From contig WOUZ01000016.1 in the NCBI GenBank assembly GCA_009773165.1, forward strand, positions 14,884-78,883: a stretch of 64,000 nt of DNA, read 5' to 3'. The notes beneath the pieces are model-generated. The model did no database searches. It saw only the letters and a program-made list of their open reading frames with translations, and was not told where the DNA came from. The stretch comes from Bacteroidota bacterium (GTDB taxonomy: Bacteria > Bacteroidota > Bacteroidia > Bacteroidales > F082). Made by a program: the position numbers and the translations under genes. Of this stretch, positions 3,059-58,739 are shown piece after piece; within the stretch, counting starts at the first letter, position 1, and each line of letters opens with the position of its first letter.

Positions 3059-4108
3059 TCAAAGAGTTTTTGCTTCGAGAAATGGAGTCAGAAACGCCAT
3101 GACATTACCTGCCAAAAAATCAATATTATACCCTCCCTCCATAAGGATCAGTTTTGGAAGAGGTAGTTCATCGATAAGGTATTGAGCGAGCTTGCAGTAA
3201 ATTGCTGATGTCAGCTTAAAGTTGCCAATCTGATCATGCTCAGATGTATCAACGCCCAAAGAAATGACTAGGTAGCTGCACCCAAATGCTTTTAAGGTGC
3301 TCACAGCCTTTTGGAAGACCTTGAAATAGGCTTCATCGTTTATGCCCGGTGGAAGCGCAAAATTGACATTCTTTTCTGTATTTTCCGATTCAAAGCCGGT
3401 AAGGTAGGGATAGGAGTAATCCGGATCACCATGGATTGAAACAAGCAGGATGTTTTCGAGGTGTTGTACAATATCCTGTGTGCCATTGCCATGATGGAAA
3501 TCAATATCCAGAATACCTACTTTAACATCACCGTCTGCCTCTGGCCTGCCCTGGTCTTGCAGGAATTTCGCTGCAAGGGCGGCATTATTAACAAAACAAT
3601 AACCTCCGGCATAATCGAAACCTGCGTGATGCCCCGGCGGACGACAGATCGAAAAGGCGCTTGACCTTCCATTCAGAAGGTACTTTGCTCCTGTTAAGGC
3701 AGTGAAGCCTGAATACTTCACCGCCTCCCAGGTGCCTTTTACGATCATCGTGCAGCTGTCGGTCATGTAATACCCTGCCTTTCCCTCCGGACTTTTCGAA
3801 GGAGGCCGGTTTCGCATATGGCCAAGGGCGAAAAACTCAGGCATGATGCCTTCTGACCATAAGCCTGCAGCAACCCACTCATCATAAGCAGTTTGCAGAT
3901 AGACAAGGTAATCGTTACCATGAATTTTATAAAAATGACTCAGATCGAACTGTTCAACTCTTGTTAGTTCCACATCAGGGTGATCCATGAGCGCCTCCAG
4001 GATTATTTCAGCCCTTTCGGGAGATTCCCCATAGGCTTCGATATGGTTCGAAATAAATTCCTTTGGCGGATTATGAAGTATGTGATGCGGAGAGTGGACA
4101 ACAATCAT
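3059..4108 (-). CDS. histone deacetylase-family protein (HDAC / acetylpolyamine amidohydrolase-like)
   Basis: 349-aa ORF with HDAC-fold motifs CRPPGHHAG, DIDFHHGNGTQ and MEGGYN. Starts 14 nt downstream of the 4123-5616 gene on the same strand. Confidence 0.9.
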   Translation of the reverse strand: MIVVHSPHHILHNPPKEFISNHIEAYGESPERAEIILEALMDHPDVELTRVEQFDLSHFYKIHGNDYLVYLQTAYDEWVAAGLWSEGIMPEFFALGHMRNRPPSKSPEGKAGYYMTDSCTMIVKGTWEAVKYSGFTALTGAKYLLNGRSSAFSICRPPGHHAGFDYAGGYCFVNNAALAAKFLQDQGRPEADGDVKVGILDIDFHHGNGTQDIVQHLENILLVSIHGDPDYSYPYLTGFESENTEKNVNFALPPGINDEAYFKVFQKAVSTLKAFGCSYLVISLGVDTSEHDQIGNFKLTSAIYCKLAQYLIDELPLPKLILMEGGYNIDFLAGNVMAFLTPFLEAKTL

Positions 4109-4122
4109 AATTTTCGACGGTT

Positions 4123-5616
4123 TTAGTCGATTATATTTGGGTCAAGGGCTTTGATATAGGTCAGCAACTCTTTGGCTACATCACTAACCAGCAGTATCTT
4201 ATCGTAATCAAGGCTTACATTATTCAGGTATTGCAAAACCAATGCATCACCAATACTTGATTCGGGGAGTATTCCGGCAAAGAAGAATCCCATCTTTTCA
4301 AATTCTGCTGTTAACCAATAGGTCATGGGGTCTTGAAGCTTTAAAAACAGGTTAATGGAAGCAATATGCTGCACGCAGAAGCTCCGTAGTGTCTTGCGAA
4401 TTTGTTGCCTGACATCAGCTCCATACGATACGATAAATATTTCAGCACAACTTTCCAACTCATTCACACCCGAACTGATCGTTGAGACTGGGTTGTCAAA
4501 CTCCCGGGAAGCATGCTCAGGAACCATAAATTGATGCGTTGCGCCAAGGTTTTGATAAAGTTTATAAACCATCTCTTTATGATGTTCAGGCACAAACAAA
4601 TTATACGAAACAACCGGCATCATGTATTTGAAGCCAAGCGCAACGCTGATTCGCTGTGTTCCTTCACCTGAGATACCTTTAAATTTCCATGAACCCGGAC
4701 TGGTAGCCAGCAAGATACCGCAATCATTGATCTGGTATTTGATCATCGACTTTTGAGTAAAGATGTGGTTAGTAACAGCATAGGCATAGATGCCTCTAAG
4801 CTCCCGTTTTTTTGGCACGTTGAAAAGATAATCGACCAACCTGTTTAAAGCACCCTGTCCACGGTATTCTACATTCACAAAAACAAAGGTCAATTCAGCA
4901 ATTTTATCTTCATGGTATTGATAAAGAAGGGCAGCGTGACCCATAAAAACATTGTCTTTAGTCACTGCAACTGCCGATATCATTTCTGACGTCTGGTTCA
5001 TGTTTACCAGGCGTTCAGGATAATAAATATGATCGTCGAAAAAGGTATATCCATGAGTTTTATAGGCACAGCGTGAAACTTCGATGGCTTCAAACTCCTC
5101 AAGGCCCCTGACATCGTATGCAATCTTTTCAGTTATGATACCCGGTGTATTATCGCCTGTGATGGTTTCGGGCTCATTCATCTGATTGTTGGCGCCCGGA
5201 AGGTATTTGATCATGACAGTCTCTTTCCCCTGCGGTCCGAGGTTGCGAAACGAAAGGTCGTCCATCATCTTTTGGATAAGATAAATTCCCAATCCACTGG
5301 TCGACATATCATCTAGAGCCTTTGATATCTCGAATTTCTTGATATGTTCAGGATCAAAAGGGATACCCATTTCTTTTAAGGTGATTTTGATCCCTCCTGC
5401 AATCTTCTCGCAAATAATATCGAAAGTAGGATTCTCCTCATCATTGGCGTGAACCATTACATTAGATACCGATTCCTCGATGGCAATGTCAATTTGCTCA
5501 AGAGAATCACCCGTGAAGCCGATCATTTTTGCAATTTCCCTCACAAATGACTGAACGATAAACGAATAGTTCAGCTTGTTGGGAAAAGTCATTTTAATTG
5601 ATTCATTCAGTTGCAT
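4123..5616 (-). CDS. fusion protein: RsbW/SpoIIAB-type HATPase (anti-sigma kinase-like) N-domain + GNAT acetyltransferase + GNAT-like C-terminal domain
   Basis: 497-aa ORF. The N-terminal ~140 aa resemble anti-sigma Ser kinases (EQIDIAIEESVSNVMVHA ... SGLGIYLIQKMMDDLSF). Central GNAT core VNVEYRGQGALNRLVDYL. Confidence 0.8.
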   Translation of the reverse strand: MQLNESIKMTFPNKLNYSFIVQSFVREIAKMIGFTGDSLEQIDIAIEESVSNVMVHANDEENPTFDIICEKIAGGIKITLKEMGIPFDPEHIKKFEISKALDDMSTSGLGIYLIQKMMDDLSFRNLGPQGKETVMIKYLPGANNQMNEPETITGDNTPGIITEKIAYDVRGLEEFEAIEVSRCAYKTHGYTFFDDHIYYPERLVNMNQTSEMISAVAVTKDNVFMGHAALLYQYHEDKIAELTFVFVNVEYRGQGALNRLVDYLFNVPKKRELRGIYAYAVTNHIFTQKSMIKYQINDCGILLATSPGSWKFKGISGEGTQRISVALGFKYMMPVVSYNLFVPEHHKEMVYKLYQNLGATHQFMVPEHASREFDNPVSTISSGVNELESCAEIFIVSYGADVRQQIRKTLRSFCVQHIASINLFLKLQDPMTYWLTAEFEKMGFFFAGILPESSIGDALVLQYLNNVSLDYDKILLVSDVAKELLTYIKALDPNIID

Positions 5617-5983
5617 GGTTTGTGTTTTTAACGTTTGTTATTAACTGAAATATACCTGAAGCAGGTCAAGAAAACTCAAACAAATTTGAAGCTTTTTTTT
5701 TGATATATCTTGTATTTACAGGTTTATTTTTTGAAATAATTAACATACATCCATTTACAGAAAACCATATTTATCATTTCTTTTTTTGGATAATTGTCCT
5801 ATGTTATTATCGGATAAATGTCATTAAAAGAATACGTTGTTTTAGAACCACTACAACATAACACTTATCCTTATCAATTTCATTTTCATTAAGTTATGGA
5901 ATGAAGTTAGTAAAGCTATGCTTTTACTATAGCTTTAAATATTTTGAATCTTTCGTTGAATTATCGAAAGGATCAATTACAAT

Positions 5984-6463
5984 CTATAATGCAATGACAG
6001 AATCGAAACACCAAGGCGAGCAAATAGAACCTAATGCCTCGCTATTTATATCATTAAGATATTCAAGAACAACAGATAATCCCAAATCCTCAAAACTCTG
6101 GATAATATCTTTCAGACTTGCGTCTGCCGAAAATTTACCTGCTTTGTTATATTCATTTTTATCCGAAGAAATTGGACTGCTTTCAATAATGCTGTTATTC
6201 AATTTTTCGATAAGGTCCTCAATGGTCCGGCTAATCTCTTTAGCGACTTTTTCATCCGAATTCAGAATCGCTGCATTATCTTCAGCAATCATCGTTCTGA
6301 CCTCCGCTTCAGCTTGCTCATCATTAAGCAGTTTTAACATACCTTGCTGATCCTGATGTAGCTTCCTTTCTTCAAGAAAACTCAGCATCGGTCTGTCTTG
6401 TGCTATTAAAGCGCTCTGAAGCACATTGACAGCCAGCATATCATAGGCATTTCGCAGATTCAT
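5984..6463 (-). CDS. hypothetical acidic helical protein, module gene B copy 1, C-terminal ...EALGS-ICSPWCFDSVIAL tail
   Basis: 159-aa ORF with ATG at 6461-6463, preceded by AAGGAGGTGA 11 nt upstream. Stop TAG at 5984-5986. A paralog lies at 7532-8011. No family recognised. Confidence 0.7.
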   Translation of the reverse strand: MNLRNAYDMLAVNVLQSALIAQDRPMLSFLEERKLHQDQQGMLKLLNDEQAEAEVRTMIAEDNAAILNSDEKVAKEISRTIEDLIEKLNNSIIESSPISSDKNEYNKAGKFSADASLKDIIQSFEDLGLSVVLEYLNDINSEALGSICSPWCFDSVIAL

Positions 6464-7028
6464 TCTGACTCACCTCACCTCCTTGTTGTTCAAAAAAGGC
6501 TTCCATTTCAATCAAATTATTAACTAAAATTGATTCATAATTCTGAATACGACCTGCTGCATTTTGAACATTATTAAGATATTCGATGATTGGTAATTTC
6601 TCATCCGCATTCTGATTTTCAAGTGCCTGAAAAGCTGAAAGCAAATCGGCACGTGCGTAATTCAGGTAATCTCTATATTGCAAAAGCGAAGAAATCGTTT
6701 GAGGAAAAGCTTCATTATATGCTTTTTCATCACTTAAAAGTTCACTCACTTTATTTATGTCGACGGTATTTCGAAGGGATTTATAATATATAAAAGTGGT
6801 GTAGTTCTTGTATTGAGTCAATCGTAATGTATCTGTAATCAATTCATTACGCAACTTAATGTCGTTATCCGTAATCGAGACATTCCTCTTAGAATCCAGT
6901 CTGCCAATAGATCCTACAAGTTGCTCAGGTTGCGTAGAATTCATATTGAAACCAAACCCGATGAGAATACCAACAGCCAGCCCAAACAGGGTGTTCAAGC
7001 TAAACAAATTTGAAGTAGTGTTTTTCAT
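6441..7028 (-). CDS. hypothetical membrane-anchored helical protein, module gene A copy 1
   Basis: 195-aa ORF. N-terminal hydrophobic helix (LFSLNTLFGLAVGILIGFGF) followed by a helical-looking domain. Overlaps B1 by 23 nt in another frame. A paralog lies at 7989-8489. Confidence 0.75.
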   Translation of the reverse strand: MKNTTSNLFSLNTLFGLAVGILIGFGFNMNSTQPEQLVGSIGRLDSKRNVSITDNDIKLRNELITDTLRLTQYKNYTTFIYYKSLRNTVDINKVSELLSDEKAYNEAFPQTISSLLQYRDYLNYARADLLSAFQALENQNADEKLPIIEYLNNVQNAAGRIQNYESILVNNLIEMEAFFEQQGGEVSQNESAKCL

Positions 7029-7058
7029 AATAATTTGAACTTAAGTAATAGAATTAAG

Positions 7059-7103
7059 ATTGTTCCAATTAGCTAAAATACAGACAAAAAACTCAAAAGT
7101 TGG
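7059..7103 (-). promoter_or_regulatory. conserved 45-nt leader/promoter block, copy 1
   Basis: Plus strand reads ATTGTTCCAATTAGCTAAAATACAGACAAAAAACTCAAAAGTTGG. The same block recurs at 8521-8565 and, diverged, at 10177-10221. Each copy lies 30-31 nt upstream of a minus-strand ATG. Confidence 0.55.
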
Positions 7104-7348
7104 ATTTTCTGATCATATTATTTTTCAAAATTGAATTGCAATTTCTAACCTTCGATAATCTTGAATCTTAGTCAGACAGTGTAACCCGAAAAAGTTAATT
7201 AATCGTTCTTTCAAATCATGTCAAATTATTAGTTGCATGTTTTCAATGGCATTTATTCTTTTAACCTGATATCCATCTTTTAATTGATCCCTATAAATGA
7301 TAACTTGCTTTAAATCATTCTTTTACAAACAATCCACCCTTCAAGACA

Positions 7349-7450
7349 AAGTAACAACTGAGGCAAAAAAGTATAAAACTAGATGATCCAATATTATTTC
7401 TACTGAAGATCGTGCCAGGAATTATGTTTTTTTGGCCTGGGTTGAATTAA
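7349..7450 (+). pseudogene. decayed copy of the 5' end of the SCFA-transporter gene (compare 10465-10575)
   Basis: CAAGACAAAGTAACAACTGAGGCAAAAAAGTATAAAACT aligns to CAAGACAATGAAATCACTGAAGCAAAAAAGCATCAAAAT. The ATG has become AAG and is followed by TAA. The upstream ~290 bp also align with 10222-10464. Confidence 0.6.
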
Positions 7451-7531
7451 TATAGCTAATAGCCTACAAAAGAAGCTATTACTTACCAAGTGTTGTTGGC
7501 TGTTACATTATCGAAAGGATCAATTACCAAT

Positions 7532-8011
7532 CTATAATGCAACGACAGAATTTAAACACCAAGGCCAGCAAGTACCACCTAATGCCTCGTTGTTTATCGC
7601 ATTAAGTTCCTCAAAAACATTATAAACTCCCAAATCTTCGATACTTTTGATAATGTCTTTCAGGCTTGCGTCTGCCGAAAAATTTCCTGTTTTATTATAT
7701 TCATTTTTATCCAATGATACAGGGCTGCTTTCAATAATGCTGTTATTCAATTTTTCGATCAGGTCTGCAATGGTTTGGCTAATTTCTTTAGCGACTTTTT
7801 CATCCGGATTCAGAATCGCTGCATTATCTTCAGCAATCATCGCTTTGATCTCCGCTTCAGATTGCACATCATTAAGCAGTTTTAGCATGCCTTGCTGATC
7901 CTGATGCAGTTTCCTTTCTTCAAGAAAACTCAGCATCGGTCTGTCTTGTGCTATTAAAGCGCTCTGAAGCACATTGACAGCCAGCATATCATAGGCATTT
8001 CGCAGATTCAC
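7532..8011 (-). CDS. hypothetical acidic helical protein, module gene B copy 2, C-terminal ...EALGG-TCWPWCLNSVVAL tail
   Basis: Same length as B1 (480 nt) if started at GTG 8009-8011, which aligns with the B1 ATG. The first 48 residues are identical to B1. The longer ORF-track form (to 8113) has no counterpart in copy 1. Confidence 0.65.
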   Translation of the reverse strand: MNLRNAYDMLAVNVLQSALIAQDRPMLSFLEERKLHQDQQGMLKLLNDVQSEAEIKAMIAEDNAAILNPDEKVAKEISQTIADLIEKLNNSIIESSPVSLDKNEYNKTGNFSADASLKDIIKSIEDLGVYNVFEELNAINNEALGGTCWPWCLNSVVAL

Positions 8012-8489
8012 GACCTGCTGCATTTTGAACATTGTTGAGGTATTCGATGATTGGTAATTTTTCATCCGCGTTCTGATTTTCAAGTGCCTGAAAAGCTGAA
8101 AGCAAATCGGCACGTGCGTAATTCAGGTAATCTTTATATTGCAAAAGCGAAGAAATTGTTTGAGGAAAAGCTTGATTATATGCTTTTTCTTCACTTAATA
8201 GTTCACTCAATTTATCTATGTCAACACTGTTCCGGAGGGATTTATAATAAATAAAAGTAATATAATCCTTGTATTGATCCAATCGTAATGTATCTGTAAT
8301 CAATTCATTACGTAATTTAATATCGTTATCCGTAATGGAGACATTCCTCTTAGAATCCAGTCTGCCAATCGATCCTACAAGATACTCAGGTTGCGTAGAA
8401 TTCATATTGAAACCAAACCCGATGAGAATACCAAAAGCCAGCCCAAACAGGGTGTTCAAGCTAAACAAATTTGAAGTAGTGCTTTTCAT
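7989..8489 (-). CDS. hypothetical membrane-anchored helical protein, module gene A copy 2 (29-codon in-frame deletion relative to copy 1)
   Basis: 166-aa ORF, roughly 90% identical by eye to A1 over the shared part. Ends ...NAAGR|ESAKCL, where A1 has 29 extra residues. Confidence 0.75.
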   Translation of the reverse strand: MKSTTSNLFSLNTLFGLAFGILIGFGFNMNSTQPEYLVGSIGRLDSKRNVSITDNDIKLRNELITDTLRLDQYKDYITFIYYKSLRNSVDIDKLSELLSEEKAYNQAFPQTISSLLQYKDYLNYARADLLSAFQALENQNADEKLPIIEYLNNVQNAAGRESAKCL

Positions 8490-8520
8490 AATAAATTGAA
8501 ATTAGGAATGGTGAATTTAA

Positions 8521-8565
8521 ATTGTTCCAATTAGCTAATATACAGACAAAAAACTCAAAAGTTGG
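8521..8565 (-). promoter_or_regulatory. conserved 45-nt leader/promoter block, copy 2
   Basis: ATTGTTCCAATTAGCTAATATACAGACAAAAAACTCAAAAGTTGG, 31 nt upstream of the ATG at 8489. Confidence 0.55.
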
Positions 8566-8626
8566 GTTTTATGTTAATTTTATTTCACTGTTGTCTGGAG
8601 AAATCTTGAAAAGATATAATAGATTT

Positions 8627-8657
8627 TTCACTCCACTGCGTTACGTTCAGAATGACA
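8627..8657. repeat. short interspersed-repeat fragment (TTCACTCCACTGCGTTACGTTCAGAATGACA)
   Basis: Resembles the GTCATTCTGA(A/G)CG...-type small repeats that I recall as common in Bacteroidota intergenic DNA. Only one copy is present in this window. Confidence 0.3.
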
Positions 8658-8682
8658 ATGCTTTAGGATAACAGAGAGGGGG

Positions 8683-8790
8683 CTTGTTGGTGAAATCAAG
8701 GCTTTGGGACCTTTTAAGTTTCACCGTGCAAATAGTTCTGATTCTTCTCCTTGGGTATATGCTTGCCTTATCACAAGTTTTCTTCAGGTT
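8683..8790 (+). pseudogene. internal fragment copy of the SCFA-transporter gene (compare 10598-10705)
   Basis: GGGACCTTTTAAGTTTCACCGTGCAAATAGTTCTGATTCTTCTCCTTGGGTATATGCTTGCCTTATC aligns to GGGATCTTTTGAGTTTCACCATGCAGATGGTTCTGATTCTTCTGCTTGGGTACATGCTTGCATTATC. Confidence 0.65.
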
Positions 8791-8811
8791 AAATAGAACT
8801 AAAGGAAATAT

Positions 8812-10146
8812 TTAGTCCTTAACGCATCTTACCGACAACCCGAAATCTTTGGGATATCCATAATAATGATTTGCCTGAAACCAGCCCACTCCGGAGTGCT
8901 TGTAGTCGAGCGTACGATTAAAGGCCAAGTGAGTGATATTGATATATTCAGTGGTACTCCAGTAACGCGTTGTTTCACCTATATCATCAAAGGTTCCATG
9001 GAACCTGTTGCCTGCAGGAAGTGCCGAAAACCCACTGCTGTTGGTTCCGTTTCCGTTAATTTTCCAACCGTAATTATTCTTCATTTTTCTGCCTTCATCC
9101 GTCCCACGCCAATTAAAACCATCTGCTTGTTCAAAACTCATTCCCAGATACATTTCCAGTTCAATCCATTCGGCGTCGCTGGGCAAGTGCCAACCATCAG
9201 GACAAATTCCTTTAATCCCGCTCGGGTTCACATAACTGCTTGCAGCACCATTCATAGCTGCAGCCCAGGTGTACAAAGCGCCGTAAATATTTGCATAAGC
9301 CGTGGAATTATCATAATAACAGTAAGCCTTATCCGTATAATCCAGGTTAATCCAGTCCGCGTCGCTTTCGACAACAGGAATTTCTGTTCCATCAGCAAAG
9401 TGGGTGGTTTTAAGGTTATCTGCCATCCACCACTGGTCGCCAATTTTTACAGTGTTGTATGAATTTCCATCATAATCAGCGACAGTTCCTGTTTCCACCC
9501 CTCCGACCAAAACTTCGATAAAGGCATTTTCTGTTAGGGTATCAGCACCATAATTATTACCCACTGTTAACGAAATGTTGAATATGCCTGCCGACGGGAA
9601 TTGATGAGAAGGGTGTTGAGCTGTTGAGGTACTGCCATCTCCAAAATCCCATAACCAGTTAACAGGTTTATTTATCGAAAGATCAGTAAACTGAACCGAA
9701 GAACCAGGGCTTATCGAAGTTAAGTTTGCAGTAAAAGAAGCAACCGGGCTTTCAGGGTTATCTTCAGCTTCGGTTAAGATGATGGTAATTTCGTCGGAAG
9801 TTGAGCCGTCGCGATTATCATAAGCGGTTGCTTTTATGCGGTAGCTGCCCAAATTTTCCCATTTATTATCCCAATCGTATTGATAGGGCAAATTCGCCGA
9901 AGTCCCAATAATAATCCCATCAATAAAAAAAGCAACTTCTTTGATATCTCCGTCGGCATCAGACGCGTTTACAGAAATTGTAACAGGCATGTTTTTTTTG
10001 ATTTCATTTCCACTGACCGGATTTGTAATAATACAAACGGGGGCTTTGTTTACAGGCTCTTCAGTCTTAGAGCAACTGTTGGTCAACACAATAACAATCC
10101 CCAATGTCACGGCTGAACAGTACAAAAGAAGGATTATTTTCTTCAT
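8812..10146 (-). CDS. surface lipoprotein with Ig-like and PKD-like domains and a C-terminal FISUMP (Fibrobacter succinogenes major paralogous) domain
   Basis: 444-aa ORF. Lipoprotein-type signal (VLTNSCSK), PKD-like WDFGDGSTS, FISUMP-like VKIGDQWWMADNL ... GLSVRCVKD. Confidence 0.85.
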   Translation of the reverse strand: MKKIILLLYCSAVTLGIVIVLTNSCSKTEEPVNKAPVCIITNPVSGNEIKKNMPVTISVNASDADGDIKEVAFFIDGIIIGTSANLPYQYDWDNKWENLGSYRIKATAYDNRDGSTSDEITIILTEAEDNPESPVASFTANLTSISPGSSVQFTDLSINKPVNWLWDFGDGSTSTAQHPSHQFPSAGIFNISLTVGNNYGADTLTENAFIEVLVGGVETGTVADYDGNSYNTVKIGDQWWMADNLKTTHFADGTEIPVVESDADWINLDYTDKAYCYYDNSTAYANIYGALYTWAAAMNGAASSYVNPSGIKGICPDGWHLPSDAEWIELEMYLGMSFEQADGFNWRGTDEGRKMKNNYGWKINGNGTNSSGFSALPAGNRFHGTFDDIGETTRYWSTTEYINITHLAFNRTLDYKHSGVGWFQANHYYGYPKDFGLSVRCVKD

Positions 10147-10176
10147 AGAAGTTTGAAGTTTGGGAAGCTAATTCAA

Positions 10177-10221
10177 ATTGCTCCGATTAGCTAAATTAAA
10201 GACAATAAACTCAAAAGTCTG
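10177..10221 (-). promoter_or_regulatory. conserved leader/promoter block, copy 3 (diverged)
   Basis: ATTGCTCCGATTAGCTAAATTAAAGACAATAAACTCAAAAGTCTG, 30 nt upstream of the ATG at 10146. Confidence 0.5.
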
Positions 10222-10464
10222 CTTTTTTGCTCTTTTTATTTATCAAAGTTTTAATATGATTTCAATTCTTCGATTTTCTTGAACCTTAACCAAAATATAA
10301 AACTTGTAAGAGTATATTCATGCTTCTTCAAATCCTGTCATTTTTTTCGTTGAATGTTTTCAATTGCATTTATTCTTTAAATTTGATGTCTATCATTTTT
10401 AATGATCCTTTAAAATGAAGGCATGGTTTAAATCATTCTTTTACAAACAAACAACTTCAAGACA

Positions 10465-11775
10465 ATGAAATCACTGAAGCAAAAAAGCATCAAAATACCT
10501 GATCCACTGATTCTTGCATTATTACTAACCTTGTTAACTATGGTGCTTGCTTTCAGTCTGGGTTCAAATTCTGGTCCAGGCTTCCAGGGTGTTACCGATG
10601 TGATCATTTGGTGGAATCAGGGTATTTGGGATCTTTTGAGTTTCACCATGCAGATGGTTCTGATTCTTCTGCTTGGGTACATGCTTGCATTATCCCCTGT
10701 CTTCGGCAAGTTGTCGACAGCCTTGACAGCACTGGCAAAAAATCCTGTAACGGCGGCTTTAACGGTAAGTGTTACAGCTGTGATATTGGGTCTGCTCAAT
10801 TGGGGTCTGGCGCTTGTTTTCGGAGCTGTATTTGTGAGAAAGATTGCTATTCAGGCTGTTAAGAATGGAAATTCCATTAATTACCCATTACTGGGTGCAG
10901 CTGCTTATACCAGTATGATGGTCTGGCATGGAGGACTTTCAGGTTCAGCTCCCCTGTCGGTAGCTTCTTCAGGACATTTTCTCGTTGCAAAAACAGGTAT
11001 CATCGCATTAAGTGACACACTTTTTTCTCCAATGAACCTGATGGCCGCTTTTTCACTCTTAGTTTTATTACCTGTGGCAACATTTCTTATGTCACAAAGG
11101 TCCTTGAATAGTATTCCTGAGCTGCAAGTAAATGAAACCATCCAAAACGATGAATTAAATCAGCCTGTTACGCGCCTGACGCTCCTGAGTTTTTTTGGGG
11201 TTTTAATGTTGACTGGTTATTTCATTCGGCTTTTTCTAAGTGACAAAGTACCTAACTTAGGCCTTAACGAGATTAACCTGATACTTTTTGCACTCGTCCT
11301 CATTTTCCTTCCACAGTTAAAGCAATTTTCAGAAGCTGCACAAACAGCCGCTTCAAGTACCGTGGGTATCATTCTGCAATTTCCAGTTTATGCAGGTATT
11401 ATGGGCCTGATGAACCATTCGGGGCTGCTGAATGTAATGACGCAGTGGTTTATTGATATCTCTACGCCAGAAACTTTTTCGGTTTATGCATTCTTTAGTG
11501 CTTGTTTGGTAAATCTTTTCGTGCCTAGCGGTGGTGGTCAATGGGCGGTGCAGGGTCCAATGATCATTGATTCGGCGCTGGCACTTGGCGTTCCACCTTC
11601 AAAAGCTGTGATGGCTCTTGCTTATGGCGATCAACTTACAAATATGCTTCAACCTTTTTGGGCGTTACCATTGCTTGCTATCACAGGCCTGAAAGCCGGG
11701 CAAATTCTTAAATATGCTGTTATATACATGCTGCTCGGATTTGTTGTTTTTACTTTTTTTCTTGCAATTATGTAG
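10465..11775 (+). CDS. atoE: short-chain fatty acid transporter (AtoE family) membrane protein
   Basis: 436-aa polytopic membrane ORF. FPVYAGIMGLM and PSGGGQWAVQGP are as I remember the AtoE/TIGR00366 family. Confidence 0.8.
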   Translation: MKSLKQKSIKIPDPLILALLLTLLTMVLAFSLGSNSGPGFQGVTDVIIWWNQGIWDLLSFTMQMVLILLLGYMLALSPVFGKLSTALTALAKNPVTAALTVSVTAVILGLLNWGLALVFGAVFVRKIAIQAVKNGNSINYPLLGAAAYTSMMVWHGGLSGSAPLSVASSGHFLVAKTGIIALSDTLFSPMNLMAAFSLLVLLPVATFLMSQRSLNSIPELQVNETIQNDELNQPVTRLTLLSFFGVLMLTGYFIRLFLSDKVPNLGLNEINLILFALVLIFLPQLKQFSEAAQTAASSTVGIILQFPVYAGIMGLMNHSGLLNVMTQWFIDISTPETFSVYAFFSACLVNLFVPSGGGQWAVQGPMIIDSALALGVPPSKAVMALAYGDQLTNMLQPFWALPLLAITGLKAGQILKYAVIYMLLGFVVFTFFLAIM

Positions 11776-14620: not shown

Positions 14621-15005
14621 TTATTACACGATTATGATTCAATGACTGCAAAGTTAAGGTTTTGATTACGAATTAACTCAATTCATTTTTTTCAACATCT
14701 GAGATATAAAATTAAGTGAATCGGACTATAATCCATTCATTGCCAACGAACGCGTAGTAACATTCATATTTGAATGAAATTGCATGGCTTTAATATCCAT
14801 TTTTTAAATGCTTTCATTATCAACAAGATTGCTTATAAAGTCTCACAAAACATCCAGCTTATTTATTTGACTTATTTTTATCGTTACCTTACTTTTACTA
14901 CTTGTTTTTGATGTGTACCCAGATACATAAGTAATTCAAAATCAAACATAATTCATTGCTGTTCTGATTCAAGTTCAATCCAATTAAAACAAAACACAAC
15001 CGAAA

Positions 15006-52637: not shown

Positions 52638-52675
52638 AAAGCCTCCTGCATTTAAAATGCAGGAGGCTTTTTTTA
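52638..52675. terminator. rho-independent terminator shared by convergent genes
   Basis: AAAGCCTCCTGCATT-TAA-AATGCAGGAGGCTTT followed by TTTTT. It abuts the stop codon of the minus-strand kinase gene. Confidence 0.8.
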
Positions 52676-55600
52676 TGCGTTGAAACCATAATCACTCAGT
52701 TTTCTAAAGAGGTCGGTCCTGTTTATTGGTTTTGCAATGTAATCATCACAACCCGCTTCTTTCGCTTTGTATTCATCGCCGCTCATTGCAAAAGCGGTAA
52801 TGGCAATGATTGGGATGGAAGGATATACAGCTTTTATTTCACGCGTTGCCTCAAAACCATCCATCACCGGCATTTTGATATCCATAATGATGAGTTTGAG
52901 CTCAGGGTGATTTTTCGCAATCTGCACCGCTTCTTCACCATTCCAGGCTCTGATAATATGAGCTTTGAAAGCTTTACGCATGATCATTTCGAGCACAACA
53001 TAATTGGAATCTTCGTCTTCGGCTATCATAACGAGTTTTTCGGTTTCCTCAACTGTTTTCTCCACTGCTTTTGCAGATTGCTGTTGAAAAGGAATGGTAA
53101 TTGAAAAAGTTGAACCTAAGCCTTTTGTAGAATCGAGACTCACACTGCCACCTAGCTGAACTGCAATGCCTTTTACAATTGAAAGCCCGAGACCACTTCC
53201 TTCATATCTTCTCGACCTGCTGCTGTCTTCCTGACTAAAGCGTTCGAAAACTTTGCTTTGCATTAGAGCATCAATTCCAATTCCAGTGTCTTTGACAAAG
53301 AAACTGTAATGATCTTTTTCGGTACGATATCCAAAAGTAACGCTTCCTTTTGTTGTAAATTTCACTGCATTGGAAAGCAGATGATTAAGTGCTTTGCCCA
53401 ACATCTCTGCATCTGTTTCTATCTGATGGATGGGTGCTTCAACAGGAAAATCAGTAATAAATTCCAACGATTTATTCTGACATTCAATCCTGAATTTATC
53501 CACAACTTTGTTAAGAATCTTTAGCAATTTGACTACCTCTAGATTCTTTTCCATATTACCTGATGTGAGTAGTGAGATATCCATATAGTCAGTGACTGTT
53601 TGTATCAATCGATCGGTACTGAGATTGACGATATCCAGAAGTTCGGGCATATCTTCTTTTCTCAGGTCGGGTTCATTAAGCAGCATGGTTGCACCCATAA
53701 TGCCGTTTAAGGGGGTCCGCACTTCATGCGATATGTTATTCAGGAACTCAGTTTTAAGTTTATCACTGGCTTCTGCCAATGCTTTTGCTTTTAAAAGAGC
53801 TTCGTTTGCAGCTTTCTTTTCGGTCACATTATAGGCCATCACCATACGGTGGTTCAAGCCTTTCTGCGATGGCAGAGCGTGTGAGCTTACCTCAACATCT
53901 ATTATTGAACCATCTTTCAAAATATGCCTCCACTGACCCGGCCCCTGCTTTGCATCAAGGTTCTGAGTTACATTTTCAAGTAAAGCAGGGATATCCTCAG
54001 GTGGTCGTATATCCATAAGTTTTAGCGAGAGAAATTCGTCACGGGTATAGCCGTAATTTTTAATAGCCGCTTCGTTAACCTCAACAAAACGAAGGCTGTT
54101 TACATCGTAAATCCACATGGGAATGGGGTTGCCTGTGAAAATATTACGGTAAAGTTTTTCATTATCGATTAATTCCTGCTGCAAAAGTTTTTGATTTGTA
54201 ACATCTTCCTTTACAGCAACATAGTGCGTCATTACACCTTCATCATTGATAACGGGACTTATGGAGGCCTGTTCCCAATAGAGTTCACCATTTTTACGTT
54301 TGTTATGAAATTCCCCTTTCCACACTTCACCTCGCTGGATGGTTTCATACATTTGCGAGTACTCTTCTCTTGTTGTTTCACCGGATGTGAGCACCCGTGG
54401 GTTTTGTCCGATGAGTTCGTTTGGTTGGTAACCAGTGGTTTCAACTACTCTCGGATTCACATATTCTATTGTCCCAAACAAGTCGGTAATTACAATGGAT
54501 ACAGGTGATTGCTCAACAGCACGTGTCAATTTCAGGAGTTCATGCTCATATTGTGTGCGTTCGGTGATATCGAGTAATGTTGATAAAAGGTGTATCTCAT
54601 TATTCATCTCATAACGCTCAACGGAGAGCAAAACAACCAGTTGATCTTTTGTGCGGGTTGTAACGAGGACTTCAAACTCTTTGATACTATTATTTTTTTC
54701 AATTTCCTCCAACAAAAGAACTCGCGTTTCCGGTTGTAATAATCCTAACTCAAGTATGCTATTACCAATAAGTTGTTCGCGTTCAAAACCTGTCAGACGG
54801 CAATAGGCATCATTAATATCAACTATAGATGCATCTGCAACCCGTGTGATCGAGATAGCAACAGGACTGGAATAAAATGAGCGCATAAAACGTTCTTCCA
54901 GCTCCTTTCTCACTATTTCATACTGATGTTGTTCTGTAATATCTTCAACAAGACCAACTCCTGCAATGACTTTCTTATAATCATTAAAAATTGGAGCAAA
55001 CTGCACACGCACTTGAGTTTCCTTTTCAGCAGTAAAAGATTTATACAAACCGTCATAGGAGGCTTTCTCACCCTCAAGAGCTTTTTTTAACGTCTCAACA
55101 AGTTTCTGATCAGGAAGCAGCAGCATGTCCAAACCAATTAACTTATCCAGAGTTGATCCAATGATATCTACAAACTGATCATTACAGGCTGTTATTAATC
55201 CCTTTTCAGAAAAGCTAAGCATACCAAGCGGCGAATTCTCGAATACCAACCTGAAGCGCTCTTCACTGCTTTTGAGGGTTTCCTGTGCGGTAATTTTTTC
55301 CTTCATCTCCAGTTGCAGATCCTCCATCAGATTCAGAGCTGCTTTTTGACTTTCTTCCAACTCTTTGATGGCTTTCTGAAGCTTTGCTTCAGCTGCTTTG
55401 CGCTCTTCAAGTTCTTTTTCTAACAAAGAGGTACGTTCTTGTATTAGCTGTTCGAGGCGATTTTTTTCATCAGCTTTGTGATCTTCGGCAAATTTAATAC
55501 GCAACATCGCCATAATCTGTGCTTTAAGCTCTGTTTCGTCAACGGGCTTACTCAAAAAAGCATCAGCACCATTTTCAAGAGCTCTGATACGGGCATCGGT

Positions 55601-55906
55601 ATCTGTACGGGCAGCTGTAATCATCACAACCGGAATATGTTGCGTCTCTTGCTTGCTTTTCAAAATCCGGCACACCTCATACCCATCCATTTGCGGCATG
55701 ATCACGTCAAGCAAAATCACATCGGGCTTCTCTTTTTGGCAAAGTTTTAATCCTTCAGCACCAGACTGTGCCATGAAAAAGTTAGAATTTGGGAAGAATT
55801 CTGACATTAAAGCCTTCAACACCAACAAATTATCGGCAGTGTCGTCAATGGCTAATATTTTAAAAAAGCTATTTTCCATACAATACATTATTGATGGTTT
55901 GTTCAA
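52673..55906 (-). CDS. hybrid sensor histidine kinase: REC - coiled coil - multiple PAS - HisKA - HATPase - REC
   Basis: 1077-aa ORF. N-terminal receiver (ILAIDD...DVILLDVIMPQMDG). H-box NISHEVRTPLNG. G-boxes DTGIGI and GSGLGLSI. C-terminal receiver (MIAEDE...IIMDIKMPVMDG). The likely start is MENSFF at 55879, overlapping the upstream gene by 11 nt. Confidence 0.9.
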   Translation of the reverse strand: MNKPSIMYCMENSFFKILAIDDTADNLLVLKALMSEFFPNSNFFMAQSGAEGLKLCQKEKPDVILLDVIMPQMDGYEVCRILKSKQETQHIPVVMITAARTDTDARIRALENGADAFLSKPVDETELKAQIMAMLRIKFAEDHKADEKNRLEQLIQERTSLLEKELEERKAAEAKLQKAIKELEESQKAALNLMEDLQLEMKEKITAQETLKSSEERFRLVFENSPLGMLSFSEKGLITACNDQFVDIIGSTLDKLIGLDMLLLPDQKLVETLKKALEGEKASYDGLYKSFTAEKETQVRVQFAPIFNDYKKVIAGVGLVEDITEQHQYEIVRKELEERFMRSFYSSPVAISITRVADASIVDINDAYCRLTGFEREQLIGNSILELGLLQPETRVLLLEEIEKNNSIKEFEVLVTTRTKDQLVVLLSVERYEMNNEIHLLSTLLDITERTQYEHELLKLTRAVEQSPVSIVITDLFGTIEYVNPRVVETTGYQPNELIGQNPRVLTSGETTREEYSQMYETIQRGEVWKGEFHNKRKNGELYWEQASISPVINDEGVMTHYVAVKEDVTNQKLLQQELIDNEKLYRNIFTGNPIPMWIYDVNSLRFVEVNEAAIKNYGYTRDEFLSLKLMDIRPPEDIPALLENVTQNLDAKQGPGQWRHILKDGSIIDVEVSSHALPSQKGLNHRMVMAYNVTEKKAANEALLKAKALAEASDKLKTEFLNNISHEVRTPLNGIMGATMLLNEPDLRKEDMPELLDIVNLSTDRLIQTVTDYMDISLLTSGNMEKNLEVVKLLKILNKVVDKFRIECQNKSLEFITDFPVEAPIHQIETDAEMLGKALNHLLSNAVKFTTKGSVTFGYRTEKDHYSFFVKDTGIGIDALMQSKVFERFSQEDSSRSRRYEGSGLGLSIVKGIAVQLGGSVSLDSTKGLGSTFSITIPFQQQSAKAVEKTVEETEKLVMIAEDEDSNYVVLEMIMRKAFKAHIIRAWNGEEAVQIAKNHPELKLIIMDIKMPVMDGFEATREIKAVYPSIPIIAITAFAMSGDEYKAKEAGCDDYIAKPINRTDLFRKLSDYGFNA

Positions 55907-58739
55907 TCAATTCTTGTTCAATAGGTTTAGGCACATAGCCATCGAATCCAAATTTCAGAATCATTTCCTTATCACCCTTCATCGCCCTTGCCGTAACAGC
56001 AATTATGGGTGTATGAGCAATATCCTTACTAGCTCTGATACGCCTTAGCACCTCAAACCCGTCAATATCGGGCAGTGAAATGTCTAACAATATCACAGCA
56101 GGATTAAATTTCACAGCCTTTTGAAAACCTGACAATCCATCTTCTGCAGTAATAATGGAATACTTATCACCTAATAATGCTTTGACAGTCATACTGTTAT
56201 CCAGATTATCTTCGATTAACAAGATTGTTGTCTCTCCTGCCTTTTTAATCAAAGGAGATTCCACAACCGTTCGCGGGTGAAGTGGCATAGAAGTAAACAT
56301 ACCCTCAATCTTCGACAGCAGATCTGCTCGGTTCAGCTCTCCTTTTTGAACTAACTGACTGATATGATTTCCTTTAAGAGAACTCAACTCATCTTTTGTA
56401 ATATGTTTAGCAGAGAGAATCAGTACAGGAATTATAAAATCATATGACTTCCTTATCTCTGCAAGGACCTGAAATCCATCCATACCAGGCATCATTAGGT
56501 CGAGAATGATAGCATCCGGCACTTTTAAATTAATCTGCTCCATTGCCTCGAAGCCATTAGCGGCAACCATAACCTGGTAACCCGCATCTAAAATCATTTC
56601 TTTAAGTTGAATAATTTGCGGCTCACTATCTTCTACAATCAGGATTGTACGTTCAGCTTTCCTGATTGTGGATTCCTGAACCAATTCATCCGATTTGTGA
56701 ATGAAGCCTTCGTAACGCACATTATCCTGGATGTTTTCTTGTGCTATTGGCAGATAAAGTATAAAAGTTGAACCCTCACCCGGCAGTGAAGTCACCTCAA
56801 TAGTACCATTACATAACTCGCTGTACTTTTTTGCTATAGATAACCCAAGACCTGAACCTCCATATCGCCTTGAAGTTTTTTCATCAGCCTGTCGAAACTC
56901 ATCGAAAATTAAAGCTAGTTTATCTTCTTCAATACCGATACCTGTATCTTTAACACGAATGCCAATCCGCTCATTGTTTGTAAAGGCTGAAATTTCAACC
57001 ATTCCCTCATGAGTGAATTTCACTGCATTGGCCATGAGGTTCTGAAGAATATGCCGCACCTTATCACGGTCGGATGTAATCATCGGGAAATCAGCGGGAA
57101 TTAGGTTTAAAATTGAAACCTCTTTATCATTTGACGATGGTTGAATGACGGATACCAGCTCATTAACTAACTCATAAACCGAGAATTTACTCAGGTTCAT
57201 TTCTTCCTTACCTGCCTCTATGCGTGAGAGATCTAAAATCTCATTGATTAAATTGAGTAAGTTTTTTCCATTCTTGCCAATAACTTCCAGGTAACTGTAT
57301 TCATCCTCTCCTATTTTCTGTTTAAGTTTCCTGCTCAAAACACCCGATAAGGCAATCACTGAATTCAAGGGTGTCCTAAGTTCGTGGCTCATATTCGACA
57401 AAAAGCTACTTTTCAGCTTATTAGCTTCGTCTAACTGTTTTTTCTGCATCTCCAGCTCGGTATTTTGTTCTGACAGTTCGGCTGAAAGAGAGCTCAATTC
57501 GTTCTTCTGAACTTCAAGTTCCTTATTTGCTGACTGCAGGTAAACCGAACGCTGCTCAATCTCTTCGTAAAGTTTTTTTTGTTCTTGTTCGGCAATTTTC
57601 TTCTCTGTTATATCTCTTGCTGCAGCAAATACTCCAACAACCTGTTTGTTTTCATCATGGTAAACAGAGGCATTGTAAGTTACAGCTGTTGTTTTACCGT
57701 CTTTATGTTTGAGCTCCAGTTCGTAATCGCGCACAAAACCCTCTCTGAAAACCTGAAGATATCCTTTTTGAGCACTTTCGGAATCAGAAAAATAATTCGA
57801 AAAGTCAGTTCCTATCAGTTCTTCGCGGCTAAAGCCAGTTATTTCCTCGGTTGATTTGTTCACATCGGTTATCTTCCCATCAGGACCTATCGTTACAAGG
57901 GGATCGATGCTTGCTTCAATGAGCCCTCGGTTATAGGCTGCTGACTTATCTAATAATGCTTTTTGTTGCTCCAGCGAACTGTTGATAACTTCAAGTTTTT
58001 CGCTGAACTCCACTATGCGGGCTTTGCTCAAAACACTTGATGCCCTGGCACTTAGCAGATCCTTAATGTTATTAATCAAGCTGATTGCCAGAGGGGCAAA
58101 AGGAGACACCTTAGCCAGCGATAAAACGCCAAGCAAACCATCCTGCATCACAATAGGAATTGTAATTATTTCCTGAGGATGATAGGTTTGGCTGGAAGTT
58201 TGAAAGTCAAAACCGGAGATATGATTCAAATCTTTAAAATGGTGAATGCTTTGATCCAAAAGTGATAGTCCAAACTCGCCTTCAAAATTCTCAATACTAA
58301 ACCGTTCTCTAAGTTCGCTTCCTGTCCCTATTGATTCAAACAATTTGAGATGTAACTTATCTTCCTCAACCAGATAAACGGCAGCTACCTGAGCATCTGT
58401 GAGTTCAAGGATTTTTGCGGTTGTTACCCTGAAAAAACTATGAGCTTCTTCTTCCTTTGACATAAGATCGGAAAGCGTATTCACGGAGGCGTTAAGCAAC
58501 AAACTCTCTTCAATATTTGAAGCAAGTTTGTTAAAAGAATCTGCAAGCATACCAATCTCATCTCTCTGTTTAATATCCGAACGGGACTTAAGATCGCCCG
58601 ACTTAAATTTTTCAGTAACCGAAATCAGATTAAGAATTGGTACACGGATGCTTTTGCTAAGGGAAATATAGATATATATAATTAGTATTAAGGCTGCCAG
58701 CACAAAAAACAACAGCTGATAGTTTAGGTTCTTACTCAA
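55869..58739 (-). CDS. TM - HAMP - GAF - PAS - HisKA - HATPase - REC - REC hybrid histidine kinase (downstream part of an interrupted reading frame)
   Basis: 956-aa ORF starting at TTG 58739. TM LLFFVLAALILIIYIYISL, HAMP-like segment. H-box NMSHELRTPLNS. DTGIGI and GSGLGLSI. Two receivers (ILIVEDS...DLMMPGMDG; ILLIEDN...LDISLPDIDG). In frame with 58749-59291. Confidence 0.85.
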   Translation of the reverse strand: MSKNLNYQLLFFVLAALILIIYIYISLSKSIRVPILNLISVTEKFKSGDLKSRSDIKQRDEIGMLADSFNKLASNIEESLLLNASVNTLSDLMSKEEEAHSFFRVTTAKILELTDAQVAAVYLVEEDKLHLKLFESIGTGSELRERFSIENFEGEFGLSLLDQSIHHFKDLNHISGFDFQTSSQTYHPQEIITIPIVMQDGLLGVLSLAKVSPFAPLAISLINNIKDLLSARASSVLSKARIVEFSEKLEVINSSLEQQKALLDKSAAYNRGLIEASIDPLVTIGPDGKITDVNKSTEEITGFSREELIGTDFSNYFSDSESAQKGYLQVFREGFVRDYELELKHKDGKTTAVTYNASVYHDENKQVVGVFAAARDITEKKIAEQEQKKLYEEIEQRSVYLQSANKELEVQKNELSSLSAELSEQNTELEMQKKQLDEANKLKSSFLSNMSHELRTPLNSVIALSGVLSRKLKQKIGEDEYSYLEVIGKNGKNLLNLINEILDLSRIEAGKEEMNLSKFSVYELVNELVSVIQPSSNDKEVSILNLIPADFPMITSDRDKVRHILQNLMANAVKFTHEGMVEISAFTNNERIGIRVKDTGIGIEEDKLALIFDEFRQADEKTSRRYGGSGLGLSIAKKYSELCNGTIEVTSLPGEGSTFILYLPIAQENIQDNVRYEGFIHKSDELVQESTIRKAERTILIVEDSEPQIIQLKEMILDAGYQVMVAANGFEAMEQINLKVPDAIILDLMMPGMDGFQVLAEIRKSYDFIIPVLILSAKHITKDELSSLKGNHISQLVQKGELNRADLLSKIEGMFTSMPLHPRTVVESPLIKKAGETTILLIEDNLDNSMTVKALLGDKYSIITAEDGLSGFQKAVKFNPAVILLDISLPDIDGFEVLRRIRASKDIAHTPIIAVTARAMKGDKEMILKFGFDGYVPKPIEQELIEQTINNVLYGK

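Follow-up and report, generated by a model that had tools for sequence, protein, structure and literature searches.

A tandemly duplicated gene of an unnamed Bacteroidales family, probably broken at the same codon in both copies

Organization of the Tandem Repeat

The subject of this analysis is a tandem repeat in a window of 64,000 nucleotides (nt) of DNA (positions 14,884 to 78,883 of contig WOUZ01000016.1, assembly GCA_009773165.1) from a Bacteroidota bacterium of the Bacteroidales lineage F082. Positions below refer to this window, and all features of the repeat are on the minus strand. A previous reading, made from the sequence alone, had described the repeat as a module of unknown family in two copies, each with a gene A and an overlapping gene B, and with an exact 87-nt indel at the gene junction. 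Self-blastn of 5000–9500 and alignment with MAFFT confirmed the tandem duplication itself. The two repeats, copy 1 (5960–7123) and copy 2 (7507–8585), are ≈90% identical (90.8% overall), with 91.3% identity between 6549–7123 and 8010–8585, and 89.3% between 5960–6462 and 7507–8010. The indel was also confirmed as a single, clean gap of 87 columns in copy 2, corresponding to 6463–6549 of the window (or 6462–6548; one boundary base is ambiguous), so that the segment exists in copy 1 only. Copy 1 comprises the gene that we call X1, ≈24 nt past its stop codon and ≈95 nt of conserved upstream (promoter-proximal) sequence, and aligns collinearly with the single-copy loci of the orthologues (L003, L008 and L007) described in the next section. 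Copy 2 comprises gene X2 with the same short flanks, and its 5' half and upstream flank are 94–99% identical to L007. The source organism belongs to the Lentimicrobiaceae and is closest to that of L007 (≈94% identity in the flank). Contrary to what had been supposed, the alignment of the units is not end to end: by self-blastn, 7124–7506 has no counterpart in 8586–8800.

Each copy contains two overlapping open reading frames (ORFs). ORF A1 (6441–7028) encodes 195 amino acids (aa), corresponding to X1 codons 1–189 followed by six out-of-frame codons (ESAKCL) and a stop; where A1 turns to ESAKCL, the relatives read on in the same frame as ...EVSQN-LRNA.... ORF B1 (5984–6463; 159 aa) covers the C-terminal half of X1, equivalent to orthologue residues 189–345 and now in the +1 frame. 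ORF A2 (7989–8489; 166 aa) consists of X2 codons 1–160 with an identical out-of-frame ESAKCL tail, and is 29 codons shorter than A1, as previously noted. ORF B2 (7532–8023) is the C-terminal half of X2, in a reading frame that is open across 7532–8113. The start codon of B was said to have changed from ATG in copy 1 to GTG in copy 2. A GTG is indeed present at 8011–8009, but an in-frame ATG (8023–8021) sits 12 nt upstream of it, and both are candidate starts. The NCBI-sourced proteins of the metagenome-assembled genome (MAG) from which the window derives include A1 as a fragment (P0001) and a 163-aa protein (P0006; FD155_3034, MQQVVNLRN...) that matches B2 read from this ATG. Start codon aside, the two copies of B agree in their first 48 residues and differ in 13 of the last 33, as previously described.

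A and B Form a Single Gene in All Relatives

When A1 was used as a query against 5.8 billion proteins, the search returned, besides A1 itself, four proteins of 335–342 aa that were 86–89% identical and that ran from ...FEQQGGEVSQN straight into LRNAHDIL..., the sequence of B. Orthologue loci were collected from the contigs of the A1 matches, and two loci were added by a scan of the GTDB species representatives. The resulting five distinct loci (L001, L003, L007, L008 and L009) come from separate Lentimicrobiaceae/Bacteroidota assemblies, one of the records being titled uncultured Lentimicrobiaceae. Each contains one intact X ORF, in frame at the position of the window frameshift, whose product is 80–89% identical to the window copies when these are read through the lesion. 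X adjoins the same downstream genes in four of the five loci as it does in the window after B1, namely a 497-aa HATPase_c_2+GNAT gene followed by an HDAC-like gene; the exception is L007, which has a transposase downstream of X.

A profile of the intact orthologues, run against 1.84 billion representative proteins, defined a family of 126 clusters, of which 103 matched at E ≤ 1e-10 and most had lengths of 320–400 aa. P0001 (A1) and P0006 (B2) were both retrieved by this profile. In ≈105 of the clusters, there was a single matched stretch that started near residue 1, passed through position 189 and reached at least residue 215, while none of the 126 had a match beginning near residue 189. Short members (P0047, P0094, P0106 and others) were checked for recurrent fission at this position, but their ends were scattered and truncation-like. 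Family members are called “hypothetical protein” where they are named, and their sources are MAGs assigned to Bacteroidales or Bacteroidota. No independent copy of the split state was found: exact look-ups of A1 and A2 were without a hit, and a degenerate 26-mer scan of the Joint Genome Institute (JGI) metagenomes returned only the L001 contig.

Judged by these comparisons, A and B are one gene, X, and not two cistrons, and A and B would overlap because a 4-nt duplication has shifted the frame within it. The two-gene module of the sequence-only reading is not upheld: the intact relatives have a single ORF of 341–345 aa, and both the profile and the structural model described below run through the A/B junction.

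The GAAT Duplication and the 87-nt Loss

In a codon-level DNA alignment with L001, L003, L007, L008 and L009, both window copies depart from the orthologues at the same point, where copy 1 has an additional 4 nt and copy 2 a net loss of 83 nt. GAAT has become GAATGAAT (GAAT-GAAT; 6458–6465) in copy 1, a tandem duplication that is found in no intact orthologue and that shifts the frame past codon 189, placing the downstream part in the +1 frame. At the break, the orthologue DNA reads ...GTGAGTCA-GAAT-TTG..., compared to ...GTGAGTCA-GAAT-GAAT-CTG... in copy 1 and ...GGTCGT-GAAT-CTG... in copy 2. The ATG of B1 (6463–6461) was made by the duplication itself (AAT|GAAT). A 0-frame stop (6443–6441) follows 20 nt downstream of this ATG, and CAGAATGAATCTG contains no homopolymer or slippery run. 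We considered a phase-variable contingency locus based on a simple sequence repeat; this was ruled out, because the lesion has just two GAAT units and no long short-tandem-repeat tract.

Relative to copy 1, copy 2 is missing 87 nt, and its frame is displaced in the same way. The segment present only in copy 1 (6463–6549) codes for orthologue residues ≈161–188, comprising the second half of the helix at 147–181 and a loop, together with the first GAAT, and the loss lies immediately 5' of the GAAT that copy 2 has kept. The deletion junction in copy 2 (8009–8011; GGTCG-T-GAATC) has a microhomology of just 1 nt. Repeat-mediated deletion was rejected, since the flanking quasi-repeats TCAGAAT and GAATC predict a loss of 77 nt or 75 nt and not the observed junction. 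Speculatively, the excision footprint of an insertion sequence (IS), with a 4-nt target duplication and an adjacent deletion, would account for a deletion that ends at the GAAT|GAAT boundary. Transposases of the IS110 and DDE types adjoin X in relatives, and there is no IS remnant in the window. Either a shared break or an IS-related event at the GAAT boundary is conceivable, although the window contains no evidence for it.

The sequence-only reading had also pointed to a Shine-Dalgarno (SD)-like block upstream of B1, described as unusual for Bacteroidota. The block, AAGGAGGTGA (6475–6484), does lie 11 nt upstream of the B1 ATG, but it consists of the codons for Q-G-G-E-V and is part of the conserved coding sequence. 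The orthologues carry CAAGGCGGTGAGGTG, CAAGACGGTGAGGTG or CAAGGCGATGAGGTA in its place, and the copy 1 sequence is only one synonymous base apart from the CAAGGCGGTGAGGTG of its relatives. The block is missing from copy 2.

Duplication, Probable Gene Conversion and Selection

The single-copy state, as seen in L008 and L007, combines the upstream flank of copy 2 with the downstream flank of copy 1, as a tandem duplication predicts. The spacer between the copies (7124–7506) matches L001 8155–8519 and L008 3439–3805 by blastn, equivalent to window ≈10137–10503. Since 7124–7390 is a diverged copy (73–76% identity) of this ancestral upstream intergenic region, the duplicated unit was the gene plus ≈480 nt upstream.

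The two copies differ about every 11 nt. The number of synonymous substitutions per site (dS) between them is ≈0.25, and copy 2 is as close to L007 as it is to copy 1. At 41 of the 88 differing sites, the base of each copy is also found in some orthologue. Over alignment positions 200–550, copy 2 and L007 are 95–99% identical, compared to 82–88% between copy 1 and copy 2, while at positions 901–1000, near the 3' end, copy 1 has 74–80% identity to everything. The two copies thus appear to be old paralogs, and not recent twins. The divergence at the end of B, which had been taken as possible diversification of the tail, is mostly specific to copy 1 and lies in a part of the protein that varies throughout the family.

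Within this divergence, there are tracts in which the copies are identical or nearly so. Identity around the junction is perfect for 100 nt on the 3' side, corresponding to the ≈100 identical nt already noted at the 5' end of B, and for 23 nt on the 5' side. Together these form a tract of 123 nt that spans the lesion, 87-nt indel aside (6363–6462 and 6550–6572, within 6363–6572, against 7911–8033). Given 88 differences in 958 aligned sites, the permutation p-value for an identical run of this length is 0.0003. A second tract, at the 5' end (6924–7028 against 8385–8489), covers the first 105 nt of the coding sequence (CDS), with just two differences and with both copies unlike all orthologues, and the copies are again near-identical to each other and unlike the orthologues in a further short stretch at the 3' end. 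There are 13 shared-derived sites, grouped at alignment positions 77–114, 572–640 and 1010–1018, with position 901 as the sole exception, and four of them lie inside the 123-nt tract. Because the shared-derived sites cluster in identical tracts within ≈9% divergence, gene conversion between the paralogs appears demonstrable at the level of the alignment, in line with the homogenization at which the sequence-only reading had hinted.

The ratio of nonsynonymous to synonymous substitution rates (dN/dS) between the copies was 0.16 for the A part and 0.33 for the B part, compared to 0.09–0.21 and 0.22–0.44, respectively, for the intact orthologues. Lineage-unique nonsynonymous and synonymous changes (N:S) numbered 17:16 in copy 1 and 12:6 in copy 2, and ranged from 13:9 to 41:27 in the orthologues. 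The substitution pattern of both copies is thus that of genes under purifying selection. The lack of a neutral pattern argues against a long neutral phase, and implies that the lesions are recent or, less likely, that the split copies are still useful.

Predicted Structure and Topology of X

An AlphaFold2 model of the orthologue P0002, calculated from an alignment of 91 sequences, was all-helical, with a predicted local distance difference test (pLDDT) score of 79.2 and a predicted template modeling (pTM) score of 0.73. Residues 51–270 form a block with pLDDT values of 78–97, while the tail has low confidence. The model contains an anchor helix (3–29), long helices at 67–99, 110–137, 147–181 and 188–208, and more helices up to residue ≈281. 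The frameshift point is located at the start of helix 188–208, at a loop/helix boundary but inside one folded body, and the deletion in copy 2 takes residues 161–188, including half of helix 147–181. A and B accordingly failed as independent folding units in this model, in which one confident helical body extends across the junction.

The N-terminus of X has a positively charged segment and a single hydrophobic helix, and reads MKNTTSNLFSLNTLFGLAVGILIGFGF.... Lysine and arginine residues are more numerous before than after this helix in 90 of 91 family members, which by the positive-inside rule suggests an N-in topology with the body outside the cytoplasm. X is most likely an extracytoplasmic, membrane-anchored helical bundle protein, ≈342 aa long in the relatives, with a variable acidic tail.

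The window copies share with the family the MK(K/N)... anchor, the (A)G(T/S)IG(K/R)...RNV..T(E/D).DI.LRNEL motif and the helical core. They match the conserved core (residues ≈1–225), and the A1 part is 86–89% identical to the intact proteins P0002–P0005. Relative to this unnamed Bacteroidales/Bacteroidota family of membrane-anchored helical proteins (representatives P0002–P0131), the window copies are distinguished by the break past codon 189 and, in copy 2, by the additional absence of residues 161–188. Neither copy has the uninterrupted ORF of ≈320–400 aa that is typical of the family, and both are best described as disrupted members of it.

That the proteins belong to no known family was borne out by every collection searched: there was no match at a curated cut-off or with a significant E-value in Pfam, NCBIfam, PADLOC, PHROGs, the PDB or Foldseek. 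Scans of A1, B1, A2 and B2 against Pfam, NCBIfam, PHROGs and PADLOC gave only sub-threshold chance matches. Scans of 91 family members against Pfam and NCBIfam were likewise sub-threshold only, six of them matching DUF1118, and no match fell on the conserved core. A sequence profile search of the PDB returned only noise resembling leucine-rich repeats (LRRs) in the repeat tails (E > 0.5), and Foldseek searches with the P0002 model found generic helical proteins, with best E-values of 0.09 in the PDB and 0.03 in BFVD. With ≈126 clusters at 50% identity, restricted to Bacteroidales and without a Pfam, NCBIfam or structural relative, the family is a candidate for a new domain of unknown function (DUF), its architecture being that of a membrane anchor and a helical bundle with variable tails of the D[AS]EKLG type.

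These tails differ between groups. In the Lentimicrobiaceae group, the tail is short and ends in ...SEALG..C-x-P-x-C, while many other members end in D[AS]EKLG repeats. Distant members (P0010, P0012, P0024, P0101, P0105 and others) carry C-terminal arrays of a [FL]D[AS]EKLG repeat of ≈9–11 residues, and it is six members with such arrays that weakly match DUF1118. Two types of C-terminus are also seen at the ends of the window copies (5984–6010 and 7532–7558) and of the genes in L001, L003 and L007, related by a 24-nt indel that carries its own stop codon. The window copies and L008 end in ...C-x-P-x-C-(F/L)(D/N)SV(I/V)AL*, and L001 and L007 in ...C-x-P-F-C-IGN*. The codons ATT GGT AAT TGA (IGN*) are still present past the stop in the window copies.

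Interpretation of the Split Copies

We consider it likely that X is a single gene in tandem duplicate, both copies of which have been recently disrupted by a break at the same codon, with gene conversion between them. In this model, old paralogs of X would exchange sequence through gene conversion, and the frameshift would have been carried from one copy to the other in a single conversion tract, represented by the 123 identical nt. The 87-nt deletion in copy 2 would be later than this conversion. We infer that the order of events was frameshift, conversion and then deletion. The disruption of both copies is most likely a loss of function, because B, which has neither a signal nor an anchor, could not reach the side of the membrane on which the intact domain resides, and because the break cuts a single folded bundle, of which copy 2 also lacks half a core helix. 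The assembly does not appear to be generally ridden with indels, since the neighboring genes are full length with complete Pfam matches.

Several points weigh against this reading. The lesions are known from one assembly, and no other contig in the collections of proteins and metagenomes had the split forms. Both half-ORFs are open, each with a usable start codon, and the length of the deletion is divisible by three. The 3' end of the deletion is the exact boundary of the two GAAT copies, which is not accounted for by simple sequential mutation. Moreover, the order of events is inferred and not shown.

X resembles other frameshift-split genes that are annotated as two overlapping CDSs, in that a small, non-triplet insertion breaks one ORF. 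It differs from them in that the same break occurs in two paralogs, and in that the downstream half gains an in-frame ATG from the insertion. The bacterial tufA and tufB genes are a well-known case of duplicated genes that evolve in concert by gene conversion, and the X copies are similar to such pairs in being a mosaic of identical tracts within ≈9% divergence. In X, however, the converted tract carries an inactivating lesion, and conversion appears to spread damage rather than to preserve function. The locus may thus serve as a clear illustration of how gene conversion can spread an inactivating lesion from one tandem paralog to the other. The main value of the analysis is nevertheless one of correction: the “module”, the “SD block” and the “ATG-to-GTG switch” would all be by-products of a frameshift in a single gene. 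The event is of an ordinary kind, and these features should not be taken up in later work as a new type of operon.

The alternative that survives best, although we consider it improbable, is a functional gene fission, in which X was split into an anchored N-terminal piece and a separately translated C-terminal piece, and in which this arrangement spread to the paralog and was kept by selection. Both halves are open in both copies and have starts (ATG in copy 1; ATG and GTG in copy 2), and the deletion leaves A in frame; however, an in-frame deletion (a chance of 1/3) combined with a kept start codon (3/4) would not be improbable by chance. The new ATG lies behind a GAGGTGA/AAGGAGGTGA motif, which is perfected by a synonymous GGC-to-GGA change unique to copy 1, but translation in Bacteroidota is largely initiated without SD pairing, and this counts against fission. 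Similarly, the substitution patterns resemble those of the intact orthologues, but this signal is fully explained if the divergence is older than a recent lesion, and it may well predate the lesion because the copies are identical around it. The break coincides with a loop/helix boundary in the P0002 model, yet lies within one confidently folded domain, of which copy 2 is short of 28 core residues. Furthermore, B has no anchor or signal, though the topology of the family predicts an extracytoplasmic body, and no B-only or regularly split member occurs among the 126 family clusters. There is also a slim chance that we are observing a fission in progress, whereby the 4-nt duplication, at a boundary between helices, both split the membrane-anchored protein and created the ATG behind the SD-like motif. 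The split allele would then have reached the paralog by gene conversion, with an in-frame trimming of copy 2 that preserved a start codon, and the halves would still be expressed and selected.

We give a similarly small chance to an artefact of assembly or sequencing, such as a chimeric assembly of strain variants or paralogs, by which the frameshift, the deletion or the tandem layout would be unreal. The source is a MAG, to whose contig the split forms are unique, and identical tracts of at least 100 nt between the copies can confuse short-read assemblers; the copies are nevertheless resolvable, given the spacing of their differences. A 4-nt insertion outside any homopolymer and an 87-nt deletion with 1-nt microhomology are both atypical of short-read (Illumina) or de Bruijn graph errors. 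In addition, the flanking genes are intact, and the spacer (7124–7506) is a diverged copy of the ancestral upstream region, as a real, old duplication would predict.

It is very unlikely that programmed +1 ribosomal frameshifting of the prfB type, with an SD-like stimulator, or some other form of recoding restores the full-length protein. Copy 1 resembles prfB in having an SD-like motif, 6–11 nt upstream of the shift point, and +1 is the shift needed to restore the frame. However, there is no slippery codon or stop codon at the shift site, the nearest 0-frame stop being the one 20 nt downstream, and the shift is not conserved, all orthologues being in frame. Copy 2 has the same frame problem but lacks the motif, and its restored product would still miss the 28 core residues. 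Least probable of all is a true two-gene module of a new family, with A and an overlapping B in tandem duplicate: each unit does contain two overlapping ORFs without a match to a named family, but every relative, and the family as a whole, encodes A and B in a single ORF, and the 4-nt duplication accounts for the overlap.

Genomic Neighborhood

The gene pair downstream of X (3059–5616 in the window, minus strand) was found directly downstream of X in each Lentimicrobiaceae locus with the downstream flank present (L001, L003–L006, L008 and L009). The first gene encodes the 497-aa protein, in which an HATPase_c_2 domain resembling RsbW/SpoIIAB is joined to a GNAT acetyltransferase, and the second encodes a deacetylase of the HDAC family; together they look like a kinase/acetylase/deacetylase regulatory pair. 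More distant members of the X family do not have this pair. In one clade (L010 7158–10103, L011 7305–10262 and L012 5326–8280), X is always followed by a protein of 981–985 aa without Pfam matches, which is 66% identical between L010 and L011/L012 and has no homologue in the window; X and this protein may form a clade-specific operon. A PrsW-family protease precedes X in L011 and L012. No operon partner was conserved across clades, as the neighbors (the 497-aa HATPase_c_2+GNAT protein, the 981–985-aa protein and a 517-aa protein, also without Pfam matches) were mutually unrelated by BLASTP.

Transposase genes are located right beside X in two relatives, at L001 8598–9548 (IS110 family) and L007 2393–3490 (DDE_Tnp_1), which suggests that mobile elements have repeatedly targeted this locus. 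Upstream of X, a block of ≈95 nt (...ACTTTTGAGTTTTTTGTCTGTATTTTAGCTAATTGGAACAAT...) occurs three times on the minus strand, at 7029–7123, 8490–8585 and 10147–10241, each time directly upstream of a start codon. It precedes X1, X2 and an unrelated PKD/Fib_succ_major lipoprotein gene (8812–10146), and probably represents a promoter or 5' leader common to the three genes, which would have been copied along with the intergenic region. Nothing relevant emerged when the region was scanned with Rfam and for promoters and terminators. Between X2 and the lipoprotein gene, 8687–8791 is a remnant of a short-chain fatty acid transporter gene, derived from its 5' coding end; it reads in frame ...DLLSFTVQIVLILLLGYMLALS... 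and is 82% identical to the orthologous stretch in L008 and L001 (equivalent to window 10608–10713). This remnant suggests that ≈570 nt of the target region were duplicated when the lipoprotein gene was inserted between X and the transporter gene.

Elsewhere, the window has a dense content of signaling genes that are unrelated to X. These are a CheB-CheR-PAS fusion protein at 2–2617, which is cut by the start of the window, and two very large hybrid sensor kinase/response-regulator genes on the minus strand (52673–55906 and 55869–58739), which overlap by 38 nt.

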